Origin: Bacteroidales bacterium
GTDB taxonomy: Bacteria; Bacteroidota; Bacteroidia; Bacteroidales; UBA10428
Assembly: GCA_041737295.1 (NCBI GenBank)
Contig: JBGSSA010000141.1
Span: 397 to 64,396 of the forward strand
DNA: 64,000 nt
Direction of reading: 5' to 3'
Under the pieces are notes generated by a model. The model had not been told where the DNA came from. It was given only the letters and a program-made list of their open reading frames with translations, and did not search any database. A program made the translations under genes and the position numbers. Below are positions 2,965-59,207 of this stretch, piece by piece; positions within the stretch are counted from its first letter, which is position 1; each line of letters begins with the position of its first letter.

Positions 2965-2970
2965 AAAATG

Positions 2971-2990
2971 ATTTGTTGATTTGTTGATTG
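2971..2990. repeat. 8-mer tandem repeat (ATTTGTTG) x2.5
   Basis: Direct reading: atttgttg atttgttg attg. Confidence 0.9.
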
Positions 2991-2993
2991 TTT

Positions 2994-3056
2994 AGGCTGA
3001 AGGTTGAAGGCTGAAGGCTGAAGGCTGTAGGATGAAGGCTGTAGGATGAAGGTTTT
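2994..3056. repeat. 7-mer tandem repeat (AGGCTGA and variants AGGTTGA/AGGCTGT/AGGATGA) x9
   Basis: Direct reading shows nine contiguous heptamers. Confidence 0.95.
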
Positions 3057-3084
3057 TAGGGAGTCTTCTCCAGAAGAGGAACTG

Positions 3085-3140
3085 ACTGCAAGACTGCAAA
3101 ACTGCATAACTGCAAAACTGCAAAACTGCAAAACTTTCTC
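3085..3140. repeat. 8-mer tandem repeat (ACTGCAAA) x6, ending in the junction unit ACTTTCTC
   Basis: Direct reading: actgcaag actgcaaa actgcata actgcaaa x3 actttctc. Confidence 0.95.
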
Positions 3141-3171
3141 ACTCGTCCCTCGTCACTCGTCCCTCGTCACT
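3141..3171. repeat. 14-mer (two alternating heptamers, ACTCGTC/CCTCGTC) x2.2; minus strand reads GTGACGA/GGGACGA
   Basis: Direct reading. The repeat overlaps the last 6 codons and the stop of the histidine kinase gene. Confidence 0.9.
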
Positions 3172-7054: not shown

Positions 7055-7085
7055 AGGGACTAGGGACTAGGGACTAGGGACAAGG
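7055..7085. repeat. 7-mer tandem repeat (AGGGACT x3, AGGGACA, AGG)
   Basis: Direct reading. It starts 4 nt after the porin stop. Confidence 0.9.
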
Positions 7086-10920: not shown

Positions 10921-11580
10921 ATGCAACCTTTTTTTCAGGAAGAACTCGATAAACTGCGGAAGAGATTGAACAAAATGTTCGTTCTCGTAACCATTCAGCT
11001 TGAAAATTCAAGCCAGTCGATTTCTAACACCGAATTTGAAACCACCGCGGTAGCCTTGAAAAATGAAAACCGCATTGATAAGCTGGATATTAAAATAGAT
11101 AAGCTCTGTCAGCGGATATTCGCACTGGCACAGCCTGTCGCCACGGATTTACGGTTTATAATGTCTTCCCTACGGATTGCAAATGAAATTGAACAGATCG
11201 GCGATATTGCATTTGATGTAATCGGCCGTTCTGAAACAGTGAGGCCTTTCCAGGAAACCCTCTCCGAATACCAGGTAACCGGTATATTTTCAGAAGTAAT
11301 AAATATAAGCAGACAGGCAACTGAAGCCTATATAAATAACAACAGCGAACTGGCGAAGGATATCGTCCGGCAAAGCAATAAAATCGAAGAAACATGCAAG
11401 GTAGGTTTTAATGAGGTGATTGCAAAAATGACCGAAAAATCGCAGGTTATCCTCATTGCCACTGACCTCATCCTCATCCTGCGCGATCTTGAACGCATCA
11501 CCAACCACTTTGAAAACATTGCCGATTCCATTGTTTTCATTGCAGAAGGGAAAAGGATACGGCATTCAGGGGGAGTGTAA
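10921..11580 (+). CDS. phoU: Phosphate signalling complex protein PhoU
   Basis: 219 aa with two PhoU repeats (IANEIEQIGDIA and DLERITNHFENIADS). Follows pstB. Confidence 0.88.
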   Translation: MQPFFQEELDKLRKRLNKMFVLVTIQLENSSQSISNTEFETTAVALKNENRIDKLDIKIDKLCQRIFALAQPVATDLRFIMSSLRIANEIEQIGDIAFDVIGRSETVRPFQETLSEYQVTGIFSEVINISRQATEAYINNNSELAKDIVRQSNKIEETCKVGFNEVIAKMTEKSQVILIATDLILILRDLERITNHFENIADSIVFIAEGKRIRHSGGV

Positions 11581-11582
11581 TT

Positions 11583-11662
11583 ATTTGTTGATTTGTTGAT
11601 TTGTTGATTGGCTTACGCGGCGGAATACTTATTGATTTGTTGATTTGTTGATTTGTTGATTG
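11583..11662. repeat. Two blocks of (ATTTGTTG)x3 separated by 24 bp
   Basis: Blocks at 11583..11610 and 11631..11662. The first starts 2 nt after the phoU stop. Confidence 0.92.
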
Positions 11663-11684
11663 GAGATTGAAGTCGGAAACGTTA

Positions 11685-11783
11685 AATCGAATGCAATGAG
11701 ATTTCTTCTCTGCGCCCTCAATAAAGCCTGGTAAACAAACCTTTAGCGTTCTTCGCGAAAACTCAGCGGCCTCTGCGTTAAAA
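11685..11783 (+). repeat. Dispersed ~100-nt core element, copy A
   Basis: AATCGAATGCAATGAGATTTCT...AAAGCCTGGTAAACAAA..CTTTAGCGTTCTTCGCGAAAACTC..CTCTGCGTTAAA. About 95% identical to copy C by hand alignment. Confidence 0.85.
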
Positions 11784-11843
11784 CGTTTGAGCGGATCTTT
11801 CCCGGCACTCGCAGATTAACAACACCCATTTCTGGAAAAGTTC

Positions 11844-12030
11844 AATCGAATGCAATGAGATTTCTCAGCGACCTACTTAAAGCCTGGTAAACAAAACTTT
11901 AGCGTTCCCTGCGAAAACTCTGCGACCTCTGCGTTTAAATTTTCCGGATATCTTATAATTATCCTGATCGATTTTTCCTGCACCCTGCAGAAGTAAAACT
12001 GCAAAACTGCAAAACTGCAGTGAACTGCAG
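11844..12030 (+). repeat. Core element copy B, plus CCGGATATCTTATAATTATCC hairpin segment, plus (AACTGCAA/G)x4
   Basis: Roughly 160 of 178 positions match the reverse complement of 45739..45913 by hand alignment. Confidence 0.85.
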
Positions 12031-12045
12031 AACATCCTTTTCTAC

Positions 12046-12987
12046 CTACACTGAATCCCTCAAGGGATTAATAAATTCAAGGTTCCGTTTCAATCCCGAA
12101 AATTTTGCCCGTTTGACAGGCGAATGAGCAAAGGTGGTCCGGAATTTTTCCTCATCCATACTGAACCAATCCCGGCGTGTCATTTCGAGTAATCCGGCCA
12201 GCGGCCTGAAATCCTCCTCGTCGTGTTGCACGGATTTACGGTTCCATGGGCATACATCCTGGCAAATGTCGCATCCGAATACCCTGTTCTGAAACTTACC
12301 TTTAAACTCCTGGCTGATCTCGCCCTTGTTCTCAATGGTCAGGTAGGATATACACCGATTGGCATTTATCGTGCGGCCCGGCAATATTGCATCGGTGGGA
12401 CAGGCCCGTAAACACCGGTTGCAATCGCCACAGAAGTCATTTATGGGGTTGTCGTATTGAAGCGGGATATCTACAATCAGGTTTCCGATAAAGAAAAAGG
12501 AACCCGACTCGGGAGAAATCAGGTTTGAATTTTTGCCGATCCAGCCGAGTCCCGACCTGGCAGCCCAGGCCCTGTCAAGCACCGGGGCCGAATCCACGAA
12601 ACCCCGGCCGCTGACCGGCCCCATCGAATGCTCCATAAACCGGAGAAGATCATTAAGCTTCTTCCTGATCACATCATGATAATCCTTGCCGTAAGCATAG
12701 GTTGAAATAACCGGAGCCTCCGGATCAAGGGGACGGGCATCGGAATAATAATTAAGGAGTACTGATATAACCGATTTTGCGCCTTCAACAAGGGTTGTCG
12801 GATCTGTGCGCTTGTCGAAATGGTTTTCCATATACGACATTCCGGCATGGTGTTTTTCCTCCAGCCATTGTCGGAGCCGCTGTGCGTCAACAGTCAAAAA
12901 GCCTGCCCCGGATATGCCGCAGCTGCTGAAGCCGAGCCTCACGGCCTCTGCCTTAATCATGGATGACCGTGAGAAAAGTTCATCCAT
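12046..12987 (-). CDS. queG: Epoxyqueuosine reductase
   Basis: 313 aa. Two 4Fe-4S ferredoxin motifs (CGDCNRCLRACP and CDICQDVCPWN) with QueG-type flanks. Confidence 0.88.
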   Translation of the reverse strand: MDELFSRSSMIKAEAVRLGFSSCGISGAGFLTVDAQRLRQWLEEKHHAGMSYMENHFDKRTDPTTLVEGAKSVISVLLNYYSDARPLDPEAPVISTYAYGKDYHDVIRKKLNDLLRFMEHSMGPVSGRGFVDSAPVLDRAWAARSGLGWIGKNSNLISPESGSFFFIGNLIVDIPLQYDNPINDFCGDCNRCLRACPTDAILPGRTINANRCISYLTIENKGEISQEFKGKFQNRVFGCDICQDVCPWNRKSVQHDEEDFRPLAGLLEMTRRDWFSMDEEKFRTTFAHSPVKRAKFSGLKRNLEFINPLRDSV

Positions 12988-20450: not shown

Positions 20451-21851
20451 ATGGCTGATAAGCAAAGAACGGTTGCCAAACCGGTAAGTCTTAAAGGTAG
20501 AGGATTACATTCAGGAGTCGAAGTTGAGGTTAAAATTTGCCCCGCCCCCGAAAATCACGGATATCAGTTTAAGCGGATGGATTTGGAAGGCACCCCGGTT
20601 ATCAGGGCACTGGCCGATTATGTAAAGATCACTGAACGCAGTACGACCATTGTAGACAAAGGCGCTTCAATTACAACCGTTGAACATTTGCTTGCTGCCC
20701 TTTATGGGATGGGTGTTGACAATGCACTCATGGAAATTAACGGTCCCGAAGTTCCCATCATCGATGGCAGTGCAAAACCATTCGTGGAAGCCATTCTGTC
20801 TGCCGGAATAGTCAGTCAGCAGGCTGATCGTGTTTATTTCCAGGTGAGGGAAAAAATTGAGTTCCGCGACGAGGCAACCGGCATTAACATAACGGCTTAT
20901 CCCGATGACGAATTCCTTGTGGATGTGCATATTGATTACAATTCAAAGGTGCTTGGTCACCAATATGCTTCCATGAAAAATATTAACCAGTTCGAAAAGG
21001 AATTTTCAAGCTGCCGTACGTTTGTTTTCCTCCATGAAATTGAATTTTTACAACGGAATAACCTGATCAAGGGAGGCGACCTTGATAATGCCATCGTGAT
21101 CATTGACCGCCAGGTTTCACAGGATGAACTCGACAGGATGGCCGAGGTAATGAATAAGCCAAAGATCAAGGTCAAACCCGAAGGCATTCTAAACAACGTG
21201 GATCTTGCCTTCAGCAATGAACCCGCCCGGCATAAACTGCTGGATGTCATCGGAGATCTGGCACTTTGCGGTGTCCGGCTGAAAGGCCGCTTTATCGCCA
21301 ATAAGCCCGGTCATCATGCCAATGTTGAATTTGCAAAACTGCTCCGGAAGAGCATCAGGATCAACCACCATAAGCCCCTGGCACCGGCATATGATCCGGA
21401 AAAAGAACCGCTTTTCGATATCAACCAGATCATGAAACTGTTGCCCCACCGGAATCCGTTCCTGATGGTTGATAAGATCATGGCAATGGATAAATGGACC
21501 ATCAGCGGCATTAAAAATGTCACCATGAACGAGGCCTTTTTCGTGGGACACTTTCCCGATGAACCGATTATGCCCGGAGTTTTGCAGATTGAAGCGCTTG
21601 CCCAGGTGGCCGGAATTCTGCTGCTGTGCACCGTGCCTGACCCGGAAAATTTTCATTTATACTTTATGCGGATAGATTCCGTTAGATTTAAACGCAAAGT
21701 GGTTCCCGGCGATACCCTGAATATCCGGATGGAATTGAAGGAGCCGATCAAACGGGGGATCGGACTTTGCAAAGGCGAGGGTTATGTGGGTGACCAGCTT
21801 GTTATCGAGGCGGAATTTATGGCCCAGATTGCACGCAAACCTGCCCCCTGA
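20451..21851 (+). CDS. lpxC/fabZ: Bifunctional UDP-3-O-acyl-GlcNAc deacetylase / 3-hydroxyacyl-ACP dehydratase (LpxC-FabZ fusion)
   Basis: 466 aa. The N-terminal part is LpxC (GRGLHSG, TTVEHLLAAL, HHANVEF). The C-terminal part is FabZ (LPHRNPFLMVDKI, FFVGHFPDEPIMPGVLQIEA). This fusion is typical of Bacteroidota. Confidence 0.95.
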   Translation: MADKQRTVAKPVSLKGRGLHSGVEVEVKICPAPENHGYQFKRMDLEGTPVIRALADYVKITERSTTIVDKGASITTVEHLLAALYGMGVDNALMEINGPEVPIIDGSAKPFVEAILSAGIVSQQADRVYFQVREKIEFRDEATGINITAYPDDEFLVDVHIDYNSKVLGHQYASMKNINQFEKEFSSCRTFVFLHEIEFLQRNNLIKGGDLDNAIVIIDRQVSQDELDRMAEVMNKPKIKVKPEGILNNVDLAFSNEPARHKLLDVIGDLALCGVRLKGRFIANKPGHHANVEFAKLLRKSIRINHHKPLAPAYDPEKEPLFDINQIMKLLPHRNPFLMVDKIMAMDKWTISGIKNVTMNEAFFVGHFPDEPIMPGVLQIEALAQVAGILLLCTVPDPENFHLYFMRIDSVRFKRKVVPGDTLNIRMELKEPIKRGIGLCKGEGYVGDQLVIEAEFMAQIARKPAP

Positions 21852-25463: not shown

Positions 25464-25530
25464 ATTTACGATTTACGATTTACGATTTACGATTTACGAT
25501 TTACGATTTACGATTTACGATTTACGATTG
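25464..25530. repeat. 7-mer tandem repeat (ATTTACG) x9.5
   Basis: Direct reading shows nine perfect contiguous units. Confidence 0.97.
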
Positions 25531-25598
25531 CGCGTAGTCATATTCTTCAAGCGATCGAAGACCTTTGAAGGGTTAAATTAGAAGAGAAAATTGAACAG

Positions 25599-25654
25599 TG
25601 AACTATCAACAATCAACAATCAACTATCAACTATCAACAATCAACTATCAACAA
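25599..25654. repeat. 7-mer tandem repeat (TCAACAA/TCAACTA) x8
   Basis: Direct reading. It ends 10 nt before the sufC ATG. Confidence 0.95.
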
Positions 25655-25664
25655 TAATGATATC

Positions 25665-29076: not shown

Positions 29077-29514
29077 GTGAAAAACATGCAGGATATACAG
29101 CAGGAGATAGTGGATGAATTCGAAGTATACGATGACTGGATGGATAAATACAATTACCTGATCGAATTGAGCCGTAACCTTCCATTGATCGATCCAAAAC
29201 TGAAGATCAATGAAAATATAATAAACGGCTGCCAGTCCAAAGTATGGCTAAGCGCCGAATACAAGGAAGGCCTGGTTTGGTTCAAAGCTGACAGCGATGC
29301 TATAATAACCAAGGGTATTATTGCCCTGCTTATCCGCGTATTATCCGGAAGGTCCCCTGAAGAACTCATGCAAAGCGAATTGTGGTTTATTGACAAAATC
29401 GGCCTTCGTCAGAATTTATCGCCTACGCGATCGAATGGCCTGCTGTCAATGGTAAAACAAATGAAATTATACGCGTTGGCGTACCACACGAAGAAAGTGA
29501 CGAGTGACGAGTGA
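29077..29514 (+). CDS. sufE: Cysteine desulfuration protein SufE
   Basis: GCQSKVWL active-site motif. The start is GTG 29077 or ATG 29086. The last 5 codons plus the stop lie in a GTGACGA repeat. Confidence 0.88.
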   Translation: MKNMQDIQQEIVDEFEVYDDWMDKYNYLIELSRNLPLIDPKLKINENIINGCQSKVWLSAEYKEGLVWFKADSDAIITKGIIALLIRVLSGRSPEELMQSELWFIDKIGLRQNLSPTRSNGLLSMVKQMKLYALAYHTKKVTSDE

Positions 29515-29531
29515 CAAGGAGGAAGTGACCT
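29497..29531. repeat. 7-mer tandem repeat (GTGACGA x2, GTGACAA, GGAGGAA, GTGACCT)
   Basis: Direct reading. It supplies the sufE stop codon (GTGACGAGTGA). Confidence 0.85.
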
Positions 29532-29545
29532 GTTTAAAAGATAAT

Positions 29546-29633
29546 AAATGTAGAGGCGACTCTCAGAGTCGCCTTAACCGTAACTAAATAAATGCAGAGA
29601 CGACTCTCAGAGTCGCCTCAACCGTATCTAAAT
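29546..29633. repeat. 44-bp tandem duplication x2, each carrying a hairpin (GGCGACTC-TCA-GAGTCGCC)
   Basis: Units at 29546..29589 and 29590..29633 differ at a few positions. Hairpins are at 29555..29573 and 29599..29617. Confidence 0.9.
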
Positions 29634-30428: not shown

Positions 30429-30432
30429 TTCA

Positions 30433-30470
30433 CTTCGCGCCCTTTGCGTATACCTCTGCGCCCTTTGCGG
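30433..30470. repeat. Direct repeat CT(T)C(T)GCGCCCTTTGCG x2
   Basis: Copies at 30433..30448 and 30454..30470. They lie between convergent genes and resemble the CTCTGCG(A/C)CC motifs of the ~100-nt core element. Confidence 0.7.
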
Positions 30471-30494
30471 TTAAGAAGATTTCTCCTGAAATCC

Positions 30495-31115: not shown

Positions 31116-31199
31116 CTGGATGGGTATTAAAGTTTATACAAAGATACATCACTTGATATAAAATGATATTATCTTTGACGCACGTTCATTATTTTATTG

Positions 31200-31304
31200 C
31201 TTATCCAGAAAGGTGGAGGGTATGGCCCTGTGAAACCTTAGCAACCCTTTCAGATTTTGAAAGAAGGTGCTAACTCCTGCTCCGGCTTGCCGGGGATAGA
31301 TAAG
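31200..31304 (+). promoter_or_regulatory. SAM-I (S-box) riboswitch
   Basis: CUUAUCCAGAAAGGUGGAGGGUAUGGCCCUGUGAAACCUUAGCAACC...AAGGUGCUAACUCCUGC...GAUAAG. It matches the conserved S-box core and P1 (CUUAUC/GAUAAG), and lies upstream of hom. Confidence 0.9.
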
Positions 31305-31316
31305 TCGGACATCGTG

Positions 31317-33025: not shown

Positions 33026-33050
33026 TCAATAATCGGTAATCTTCATTGAG

Positions 33051-33209
33051 ATTGGATACTGGATATTGGATACTGGATACTCGATATACCAGCATCCAGT
33101 ATCCAGCATCCAGTATCCAGCATCCAGTATCCAGTATCCAGCATCCAGCATCAAGCATCCAGCATCAAGCATCCAGTATCCAGCATCCAGCATCCAGTAT
33201 CCGACTACC
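33051..33209. repeat. Inverted heptamer arrays: (AYTGGAT)x5, then the complementary (AGYATCC)x17
   Basis: Units tiled by hand across 33051..33085 and 33091..33209. The last degenerate unit contains the ung stop codon. Confidence 0.95.
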
Positions 33210-45687: not shown

Positions 45688-45714
45688 TAGAGACAAGGCA
45701 ATGCCTTGTCTGTA
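45688..45714. terminator. Hairpin repeat of the TAGAG-stem-loop class after mlaF
   Basis: AGACAAGGC-AAT-GCCTTGTCT (9-bp perfect stem, 45691..45711) with partial extension. It has the same TAGAG 5' flank as the hairpins at 29551 and 29595. Confidence 0.55.
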
Positions 45715-45738: not shown

Positions 45739-45913
45739 CAGTTTTGCAGTTTTGCAGTTTCCTTCAGCAGGGTATAGGAAAATCGATCAGGATATTTATA
45801 AGATATCCGGAAAATTTAAACGCAGTGGTCGCAGAGTTTTCGCGAAGAACGCTAAAGTTTTGTTTACCAGGCTTTATTGAGGTCGCAGAGAAGAAATCTC
45901 ATTGCATTCGATT
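45739..45913 (-). repeat. Core element copy C, plus hairpin segment, plus (AACTGCAA)x2.5, in minus orientation
   Basis: Its reverse complement aligns with 11844..12020 over the full length, at about 89% by hand alignment. Confidence 0.85.
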
Positions 45914-45932
45914 TATATTTCCGGAATCAGAT

Positions 45933-46004
45933 CAACCAATCAACCAATCAACCAATCAACAAATCAACAAATCAACAGATCAACAAATCAACAAATCAAC
46001 AAAT
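45933..46004. repeat. 8-mer tandem repeat x9 (CAACCAAT x3, CAACAAAT x2, CAACAGAT, CAACAAAT x3)
   Basis: Direct reading. The last T is the first base of the complement of the DUF4834 stop codon. Confidence 0.95.
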
Positions 46005-46302: not shown

Positions 46303-46337
46303 AGTTGAAAGTTGATGGTTGATGGTCGATAGTTTTA
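46303..46337. repeat. 7-mer tandem repeat (AGTTGAA, AGTTGAT, GGTTGAT, GGTCGAT, AGTTTTA)
   Basis: Direct reading. It is the complement of the TCAACNA family. Confidence 0.85.
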
Positions 46338-46351
46338 CACGGTAACGGACA

Positions 46352-46431
46352 GATTGCATGACTGCACGACTGCGCGACTGCCGAACTGCCGAACTGCTAA
46401 ACTGCTAAACTGCAAAACTGCAAAACTTTCT
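46352..46431. repeat. 8-mer tandem repeat x10 with stepwise unit drift, from GATTGCAT to AACTTTCT
   Basis: gattgcat gactgcac gactgcgc gactgccg aactgccg aactgcta x2 aactgcaa x2 aactttct. Confidence 0.95.
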
Positions 46432-46459
46432 TGTCCCTTGTCCCTTGTCCCTCGTCCCT
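46432..46459. repeat. 7-mer tandem repeat (TGTCCCT x3, CGTCCCT)
   Basis: Direct reading, followed by T8. The module order matches 3085..3171. Confidence 0.92.
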
Positions 46460-46508
46460 TTTTTTTACTACCTTTACGGGCGTTAAAAAATAAATCCCAA
46501 AAAAACAC

Positions 46509-55626: not shown

Positions 55627-55733
55627 ATGCCCGATAAAATCGCCGGAAGCAAACTTTCAAATCAGGAATATTGCTTACTTTTATGCGGAATTTGTTTTTT
55701 GCATAATGATACTTATATCAATCATATATCGTC

Positions 55734-55784
55734 AATCGTAAATCAAATATATCAGCAATCGTAAATCGTAAATCGTAAATTTTT
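55734..55784. repeat. 7-mer repeat (AATCGTA): three perfect units at 55757..55777 plus degenerate flanking units
   Basis: Direct reading. It is the reverse complement of the ATTTACG family at 25464, and ends about 7 nt before the gcvH ATG. Confidence 0.8.
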
Positions 55785-59078: not shown

Positions 59079-59186
59079 AATCGAATGCAATGAGATTTCT
59101 CAGCAACCTCAAAAAAGTATAGCGTCATAAAAAATAACGTTGTGAACTTTGCGCAATTCCTCCGCGTCCTCTGCGTTAAATTTTTT
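59079..59186 (+). repeat. Core element copy D (diverged)
   Basis: It shares the 5' end AATCGAATGCAATGAGATTTCTCAGC.ACCTC and the 3' end CCTCTGCGTTAAATTTT with copies A-C. The middle has diverged. Confidence 0.65.
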
Positions 59187-59207
59187 ACCTATTCCGTAAA
59201 AAGTCTG

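Follow-up and report, generated by a model that had tools for sequence, protein, structure and literature searches.

How do two unrelated convergent gene pairs of one genome come to share the same composite non-coding sequence? The question is raised by a 64,000-nt stretch of contig JBGSSA010000141.1 from a Bacteroidales bacterium (GenBank assembly GCA_041737295.1, contig positions 397 to 64,396; hereafter the window), in which the spacer between phoU and queG (locus 1) and the spacer between mlaF and a DUF4834 gene (locus 2) each carry a cassette with one order of parts. A short tandem repeat (STR) array is followed by a linker, by a core that runs from a 22-nt box1 (AATCGAATGCAATGAGATTTCT) through a variable middle to a box2 (CTCTGCGTTAAAATTTTGG), by a short hairpin with its own linker and by a second STR array. 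A preliminary description of the window had singled out this cassette as non-coding, composite and common to the two gene pairs, and all the parts that it described are present at both loci. We find that the cassettes belong to a family of non-coding intergenic repeats, modular and mosaic, which is undescribed and restricted to one lineage; recent copying or gene conversion inside the genome, between two family members already present, would best account for the near-identity of the two cassettes. The family members of the window consist of the following parts, with the tool or evidence in brackets.

11583-11663, + strand: left STR module of locus 1, (ATTTGTTG)x3.4 at 11583-11609, a 22-nt gap and x3.8 at 11632-11661 (Tandem Repeats Finder)
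11664-11684, + strand: linker GGAGATTGAAGTCGGAAACGTTA, with the AGATT and GGAAAC motifs found ahead of box1 family-wide (sequence; family alignment columns 1-16)
11685-11791, + strand: core A, with box1 at 11685-11706, a type-III middle containing GCCTGGTAAAC and box2 at 11762-11782; 11685-11783 in the preliminary description (nhmmer E=3e-22)
11792-11843, + strand: A-B junction, with a degenerate post-box2 segment, a relic STR unit CTCGCAGATT (11808-11817) and GGAAAAGTTC (sequence)
11844-11943, + strand: core B, with box1 at 11844-11865 and box2 at 11918-11938 (nhmmer E=2e-24)
11944-11994, + strand: post-box2 hairpin GGATA/TATCC (CCGGATATCTTATAATTATCC, 11944-11964), then linker TGATCGATTTTTCCTGCACCCTGCAGAAGTA (sequence)
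11995-12030, + strand: right STR module of locus 1, (AACTGCAA)x3.1, perfect at 11995-12019 and degenerate to 12030 (Tandem Repeats Finder)
45931-46004, - strand: left STR module of locus 2, (ATTTGTTG-type)x9.2 (Tandem Repeats Finder)
45811-45930, - strand: linker and core C, the core at 45913-45811 with box1 at 45913-45892 and box2 at 45836-45816 (nhmmer E=1e-21)
45739-45810, - strand: hairpin GGATAT/ATATCC (45810-45790), linker and right STR module (AACTGCAA)x2.8 (45760-45739) (Tandem Repeats Finder, alignment)
59079-59190, + strand: copy D, a fourth full core of a diverged subtype without flanking STR arrays (nhmmer E=2e-20)
30431-30474, + strand: 3'-half fragment, two CTYNGYG units and box2 only (nhmmer E=1e-3)

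Global alignment of the window copies gave 159/178 matches between B and C, where about 160 had been counted by hand, 93/99 between A and C, for which about 95% over the core had been estimated, and 84/~100 between A and B. The repeat finder independently paired 11862-11975 with 45779-45892 at 92% and 11683-11783 with 45815-45915 at 94%. Core C is a mosaic, its first ~75 nt resembling A and the remainder, including hairpin, linker and right array, resembling B. Four occurrences of the 18-mer AATCGAATGCAATGAGAT in the window, where shuffles predict 0.14, and five of the box2 pattern, where 0.01 is expected, lie so far above expectation that the shared cassette is not a product of chance.

At locus 1 the left STR module begins 3 nt past the phoU stop codon and the cassette ends 16 nt from the queG stop (queG open reading frame, ORF, 12046..12987). 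The two left arrays of three units reported there are real (3.4 and 3.8 copies), with a gap of 22 nt in place of the reported 24 bp, and the four units reported on the right correspond to 3.1 perfect units prolonged by degenerate ones. The order reported for locus 2 is the one observed, its arrays of 9 and 2.5 units measuring 9.2 and 2.8, and the last codon of the DUF4834 gene is replaced by a stop codon that abuts, and comes from, the left array. The hairpin reported as the mlaF terminator is a real 10-bp palindrome (45691-45711) but has no T-run, and the terminator scan makes no call on it. Between cores A and B, the relic STR unit CTCGCAGATT lies 26 nt ahead of the box1 of core B, and this canonical spacing indicates that A and B are two head-to-tail family units. 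The inventory of two loci was correct as far as it went and had overlooked copy D, which lies in a convergent spacer 50 nt past the stop of a + strand gene, and the fragment at 30431-30474, immediately behind the stop of another + strand gene. All four element loci of the window are found in convergent spacers, each element in sense behind one of the two genes. A marginal profile match to the box2 region at 21668-21706 on the - strand (nhmmer E=0.21) is probably noise.

A lineage-restricted family and its anatomy

The family comprises 107 copies in 95 spacers and none inside genes, counted with at most three mismatches in the first 18 nt of box1, and is hosted by four related uncultured Bacteroidales metagenome-assembled genomes (MAGs), one other MAG and 33 metagenome contigs. 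The 22-mer box1 search returned 58 loci in one-genome-per-species collections, all but one of them in the four related Bacteroidales long-read MAGs, the single outlying locus being a degenerate copy in a MAG labelled Flavobacteriales; the same search of metagenomes yielded the 33 contigs. Exact-box copies number about 10-25 per genome. No core match was obtained among viral contigs, plasmids and phages. Rfam searched over the whole window at gathering threshold returned only an S-adenosylmethionine (SAM) riboswitch elsewhere and nothing in the cassettes, Rfam searched at E<=10 over 11500-12100 returned noise matches of <=16 bits only, and a literature search for the box1 string gave no match, which bears out the earlier impression that this is not a described family. 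The suggestion that the module is dispersed, with a conserved order and a preference for convergent gaps, is likewise borne out by the family search, the alignment and the census of spacers given below. The alignment and its hidden Markov model now define a repeat family absent from every library searched, the host being an uncultured Bacteroidales lineage of environmental metagenomes.

The anatomy of the unit was drawn from about 100 copies and a 60-sequence alignment (individual family loci are denoted by L-numbers). The order is STR array, ~27 nt, the 22-nt box1, variable middle, box2, short hairpin or linker, second STR array. The upstream array is most often (TCGCAGAT)n, often doubled round a ~25-nt segment ending in CGGGGCTTTTTT, and at locus 1 its slot is occupied by the ATTTGTTG array; the ~27-nt stretch ahead of box1 holds AGATT...AATCT and YTGAAAYGGTT. 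Box1 is invariant in the family. The middle has a constrained length and falls into at least three sequence types, all made of CTYNGYG motifs, the window copies being of the GCCTGGTAAAC type (type III); box2 is followed by ATCTC and the short hairpin, then by TTGTTTTC and another STR array. The length distribution in the alignment is tight, and the distance from the (CGCAGAT)n array to box1 is 25-30 nt in 20 copies, with a mode of 27 nt, a fixed distance indicating that the array belongs to the unit and is not a chance neighbour. Units are arranged head-to-tail in L047 (three), L046 (three) and L029 (two), as in window A-B. At a non-orthologous locus of another species, L056 displays the same core type, GGATA/TATCC stem, linker and (ACTGCAA)n array, with a different array further upstream; CYGCARA-type arrays, related to the right array of locus 1, follow box2 in L056, L077 and L089, and a D-type copy of 84% identity is found at a non-orthologous locus in L077. 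The recurrence of these modules across about 100 copies, L056 included, makes the composite cassette the norm of the family. One MAG carries near-identical 240-nt copies at >10 sites, with sharp left ends at CTCCTATATAAC. The middle is dispensable, as indicated by minimal elements in which box1 is joined straight to box2 (L006 ~2014-2035, - strand; …GAGATTTCTTTGCGTTGAAATTTTGG) or in which it measures ~20 nt only (L029 7037).

Every copy carries at the same offset in box1 a mini-ORF, ATG CAA TGA (11691-11699 in core A), and the ORFs that start at a second ATG (ATGAGATTT...) vary greatly in length and show no coding conservation. A small peptide was considered for the ATG AGA TTT... ORFs, which are in frame at 10-12 amino acids in the four window copies, and was rejected: family-wide they range from 4 to >50 amino acids in shifting frames. 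A mini-insert of ~24 nt, TGCCGAAGGCATCCCTTCGGGAAA, with two small hairpins of which one has a UUCG loop, was observed within cores (L087, L090, L091) and within STR units (L012, L036, L068, L072, L094), at TTTTC^GCA contexts and in either orientation, and would seem to be a second, nested family of repeats.

The family is new and of a known kind, the mosaic intergenic repeats represented by BIME, BOX and BrickBuilt. Bacterial interspersed mosaic elements (BIMEs) are mosaics of conserved motifs, small non-coding extragenic repeats that are sometimes iterated head-to-tail. The present family is likewise small, extragenic, mosaic, sometimes head-to-tail, mostly downstream of genes and plausibly transcribed. 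The repetitive extragenic palindrome (REP), however, is an imperfect palindrome of 20-40 nt with an unpaired GTAG or CGTC head (PMC3733652). Here two linear conserved boxes and 7-10 nt tandem arrays take its place, no GTAG/CGTC-headed hairpin was found in the family alignment and neither box is palindromic, no gene resembling that of a REP-associated tyrosine transposase (RAYT) was seen beside any copy in the 8-kb pieces, and exact-box copies do not run to hundreds per genome. The BOX elements of Streptococcus pneumoniae, boxA-(boxB)n-boxC with a variable internal number, are intergenic, transcribed with their neighbours and devoid of a transposase of their own, and their complementary ends boxA and boxC fold into a stable stem. 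Their modular design with variable internal units is shared by the present family, whose phylum and sequence are unrelated and in which only an interrupted 8-bp pairing of box1 with box2 is possible. The flanks recall the short tandemly repeated repetitive (STRR) heptamer arrays of heterocystous cyanobacteria, reportedly described by Mazel and colleagues in 1990, in being intergenic tandem arrays of 7-8 nt units from a few unit families common to related species; they differ in phylum and units, in their fixed positions relative to a conserved core and in their replacement between close relatives. Within the same bacterial order, the BrickBuilt element of Porphyromonas gingivalis, one of the miniature inverted-repeat transposable elements (MITEs), has a 23-nt internal minisatellite that lies between its leader and tail subunits, small inverted-repeat ends and promoter activity, and is found at ~19 copies per genome, always intergenic and in a narrow host range (PMC4596501). 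The present family is also an intergenic composite of unique subunits and a tandem array, but is set apart by its description: the unique core is central, the 7-10 nt arrays lie outside, and neither inverted-repeat ends nor a promoter motif was found. What is unusual here is the use of fast-evolving short tandem arrays as fixed modules and a clear homogenisation within the genome, which makes the family a clear example of dispersed non-coding modules evolving in concert.

Placement, turnover and history of the loci

Merging the spacers with orthologous flanks reduced the 95 to 73 independent clusters, both neighbours being called in 54. These 54 divide into 27 convergent spacers, 13 co-directional ones with the element in sense, 4 co-directional ones with the element antisense and 10 divergent ones. 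As convergent spacers make up 8/49 of the window, the family is enriched in them about three-fold. In 40/54 independent spacers the element follows a gene in the sense orientation, and the excess of 13 sense over 4 antisense in co-directional spacers corresponds to a one-sided binomial p of ~0.02. REPs, too, are extragenic, found between unidirectional and convergent ORFs and for the most part behind genes (PMC3733652), and the sense-downstream and convergent fractions measured here match that reported placement. When the 160 flanking proteins were clustered, only orthologous sets and TonB-dependent receptors recurred, with no transposase-like gene or associated enzyme gene among them.

In orthologous pairs the cores are 75-86% identical and the adjoining spacer 45-57%, effectively unalignable; the core middle exceeds the identity at four-fold sites of the flanking genes in several pairs (82 vs 50, 74 vs 44 and 71 vs 59). 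One orthologous spacer holds a type I core in L008 and a type II core in L022, the middle being 46% identical vs 73% at four-fold sites, so that spacers can swap cores. Copy D has kept box1 (22/22) and most of box2 while its middle is only ~60% identical to that of A-C, which singles out box1 and box2 as the probable selected parts. Over evolutionary time, spacers gain, keep and swap cores, with a much faster turnover in the flanking STR arrays than in the cores.

The phoU-queG spacer is core-less in four relatives (L061, L062, L063/64 and L065; PhoU 80-89% identical), where it measures 43-194 nt and holds only STR arrays of other unit types, often inverted arrays able to form a long hairpin (L061 3638-3760; L062 3656-3930; L063 709-910; L065 3638-3770). 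In some relatives the arrays enter the phoU reading frame, giving PhoU proteins of 219-231 amino acids with differing tails. The mlaF and DUF4834 genes, 330 nt apart in the window, are separated by 1 nt or overlap in L066 and L067 (MlaF 86-90% identical). In closer relatives, whose flanks are 93-94% identical, both loci are occupied by a type-III core: L099 has a single one at phoU-queG, and L076 has one at mlaF-DUF4834, with (GTAATCR)x4 to its left, (TCGCAGAT)x3 to its right and neither the arrays nor the hairpin-linker of the window. The flanking octamer arrays are not peculiar to the cassette: they are members of STR families spread over the genome, and a close relative has other arrays at the orthologous locus.

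Core identity is 91% between window copies A and C and 77-79% between each window copy and its own orthologue; the right flanks of B and C are 85% identical to each other and ~53% identical to the orthologue. Since the window copies are closer to each other than to their orthologues, the shared cassette appears to reflect within-genome copying, and the mosaic core C fits a recombination involving the A-B tandem. The simplest reading of these comparisons would be that a family member was already resident at both loci when, in the window lineage, one complete cassette with its arrays overwrote the other by copying. No target-site duplication was seen when empty and filled sites were compared at the two loci, the relatives being too diverged and the spacers too rearranged for short ones to be excluded.

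Structure tests and competing explanations

RNAalifold applied to the 60-sequence alignment returned a single helix, in which AAUGC and GAG of box1 pair with GCGUU and CUC of box2. An alternative pairing of box1 GAGAU with a downstream AUCUC is formed in 73% of cells, with no covariation. Some post-box2 stems look compensatory (GGTAA/TTACC, GGGCA/TGCCC and GGATA/TATCC) and as a class stand barely above shuffles; no compensatory covariation was found in the family alignment or in the subtype folds. The Bacteroidetes -7 motif TAnnTTTG gave no positional signal on either strand, with 2 matches in the 100 nt before box1 among 89 copies, and the terminator scan (GC-rich hairpin followed by a T-run) found no site in either window cassette. 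Two other candidates were considered. One, suggested by single-sequence folds, was a long hairpin in which the upstream (CGCAGA)n would pair with the core (TCTGCG)n; it was rejected, as the G/C vs A/T flavours of the two sides show no co-variation (the four classes hold 20, 7, 3 and 0). The other was an integron attC-like or dif-like site, suggested by GTTAAAC and GTTAAAA, for which there are no cassette ORFs, no integrase-adjacent array and no proper inverted core sites.

The best explanation of the data as a whole, to which we attach a probability of roughly 55%, is a lineage-restricted modular intergenic repeat family acting as a co-transcribed 3'-end element and homogenised by within-genome copying. 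The unit would be co-transcribed in the 3' untranslated region (3'-UTR) of the upstream gene, and the position and orientation bias, together with the lack of a promoter of its own, favours such transcription as the tail of the upstream mRNA. Pairing of box1 with box2 (AAUGC/GCGUU plus GAG/CUC) may close the variable middle, and the boxes may serve as a binding platform or act in cis on the mRNA 3' end, on its stability or processing. Slippage from seed units would lengthen the STR arrays in place, a whole cassette with its STR flanks could be copied onto another resident family member by gene conversion or duplicative transfer, and spread would depend on a mechanism that is trans-acting or recombinational. 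Should the boxes act in RNA, they would offer a handle on post-transcriptional control in a phylum that, to our knowledge, lacks both Hfq and CsrA. A bolder extension is speculative and we hold it to be improbable: the units would form a new class of 3'-UTR RNA modules in which the single-stranded 22-nt box, and perhaps the octamer arrays, recruit a lineage-specific RNA-binding factor or small RNA and couple the expression of dozens of unrelated housekeeping genes, uniformity in each genome being kept by frequent gene conversion with the STR arrays as recombination handles.

Several points weigh against this best explanation as a whole. The box1-box2 helix is paired in 99% of cells, and its 27 changes are all from G-C to G-U, none affecting both sides; as box1 is invariant and served as the search key, these data are no proof of pairing. 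The C/T/N variability of box2 is also seen in the internal CTYNGYG unit, so that the changes in box2 give pairing no specific support. Two boxes of ~20 nt can be expected to share a 5-bp match by chance, the subtype-specific folds are mutually inconsistent, and the post-box2 hairpin exceeds its shuffles by a slight margin (mean score 8.7 vs 7.0). The placement counts depend on our own codon-usage-scored ORF caller, which is crude, and in 14/54 independent spacers the element is upstream of or antisense to a gene. The family loci are 8-kb pieces selected for carrying box1 and not whole genomes, the invariance of box1 is partly an effect of its use as the key to the collections, and L076 and L099, on which the comparison of the two loci with close relatives draws, come from different samples and possibly not from one genome.

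The elements could instead be classical non-autonomous transposons, either MITEs or palindrome-associated elements of the IS200/IS605 type, mobilised by a transposase encoded elsewhere and devoid of host function, their position bias reflecting insertion tolerance. They are small, non-coding, multi-copy and dispersed, they are present or absent at orthologous loci, they form head-to-tail multimers, the near-identical 240-nt copies of one MAG have sharp left ends at more than 10 sites, and the nested 24-nt mini-insert indicates that small insertions do occur here. The oppositely oriented motif arrays round box1, TCGCAGAT upstream and CTCTGCG downstream, also resemble multiple subterminal binding sites, but the flavours of upstream and core motifs do not co-vary. 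The repeat search, like the preliminary description, brought out neither terminal inverted repeats nor obvious target duplications: no local inverted repeats bound the window copies, the 240-nt copies end CTCCTATATAAC... / ...GAGGACTC, which are not inverted, and the sole resemblance between the two sides of the unit is a weak T-run with CGCAGA. As the 160 flanking proteins include no transposase-like or recurrent neighbour, the 13:4 sense bias in co-directional spacers is unexpected for neutral insertions and the cores of some orthologous pairs are conserved beyond four-fold sites, we regard a transposon without host function as unlikely. A protein-binding site array acting at the DNA level, for instance for a nucleoid protein or gyrase reading the repeated CTYNGYG / CGCAGA motifs, would account for the 3-4 direct motif copies at ~9-10 nt spacing in the core, for the inverted copies upstream, for the same position-specific variability in each motif copy and for the AAAATTTT tract of box2; gyrase binding has been proposed for BIME-2. 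A DNA site, however, has no need of a sense bias relative to transcription, the window copies have ATTTGTTG in place of the upstream motif array, and with no candidate protein known we give such an array very little credence.

The preliminary description had itself offered two readings, a small RNA gene and a terminator or insulator module, and neither is supported by the results. A paralogous family of trans-acting small RNAs, with the invariant box1 as shared seed, would fit an invariant 22-nt stretch beside variable sequence, the importance of orientation and the restriction to one lineage. It is made improbable by the lack of a TAnnTTTG motif at a fixed position upstream of box1, of a terminator behind the window copies and of a conserved covarying structure, by the tight position of copies behind stop codons, more in keeping with read-through than with separate genes, and by the window holding no complementary target except the copies themselves. 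As for a terminator or insulator between convergent genes, the enrichment in convergent spacers speaks for it, as do the inverted STR arrays that fill the same spacers in relatives and could form long hairpins, and REPs are similarly placed (PMC3733652). However, neither cassette contains a hairpin with a T-run, the conserved boxes are not GC-rich stems, and 23/54 independent spacers are co-directional or divergent, so that this reading, too, seems very improbable.

Tandem arrays and other features

The two STR unit types of the cassettes are also found without a core, at 2969-3171 and 46311-46460, and units of 7-8 nt are arrayed in tandem in about 10 of the window's 49 spacers (ATTTACG x9, CCAGCAT x16, AGGCTGA x8, AACAATC x8 and others). 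The STR-array spacers are as follows.

2969-3171: array spacer, with both cassette unit types and no core
7055-7085: array spacer
25464-25655: array spacer
29496-29515: array spacer
33046-33202: array spacer, with (TGGATAC)x5 followed by (CCAGCAT / CCAGTAT)x16
46311-46460: array spacer, with both cassette unit types and no core
55720-55780: array spacer

The STR unit families of the window recur in related MAGs, where orthologous spacers carry different arrays. A composite of (ACTGCAA)n, ACTTTCT and (CTYGTCC)n is found in the same order and orientation at unrelated spacers and in other species (3085-3171, 46377-46460, L062 and L027), and this recurrence suggests a grammar of arrays. The two arrays at 33046-33202 are ~83-91% complementary and could form a hairpin of ~40 bp, and upstream of a window-type core L056 has, at ~1000-1090, a long (AGGGGTTT)n array of G-rich, telomere-like units. 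It appears to be a style of this genome that spacers are filled with fast-evolving 7-8 nt arrays, which even reshape protein C-termini. The short-read contigs L059 and L060 end 27 nt past the phoU stop, and six metagenome contigs (L073, L084, L086, L088, L090 and L099) end within ~30 nt upstream of box1; contig ends at the arrays or the repeat explain why short-read assemblies break just after genes.

Two further features were noted in the window. A 44-nt unit is repeated 2.1 times at 29543-29633, each copy with the palindrome GGCGACTC-TCA-GAGTCGCC, and the SAM riboswitch (RF00162, 89 bits), unrelated to the cassette, lies at 31198-31306.

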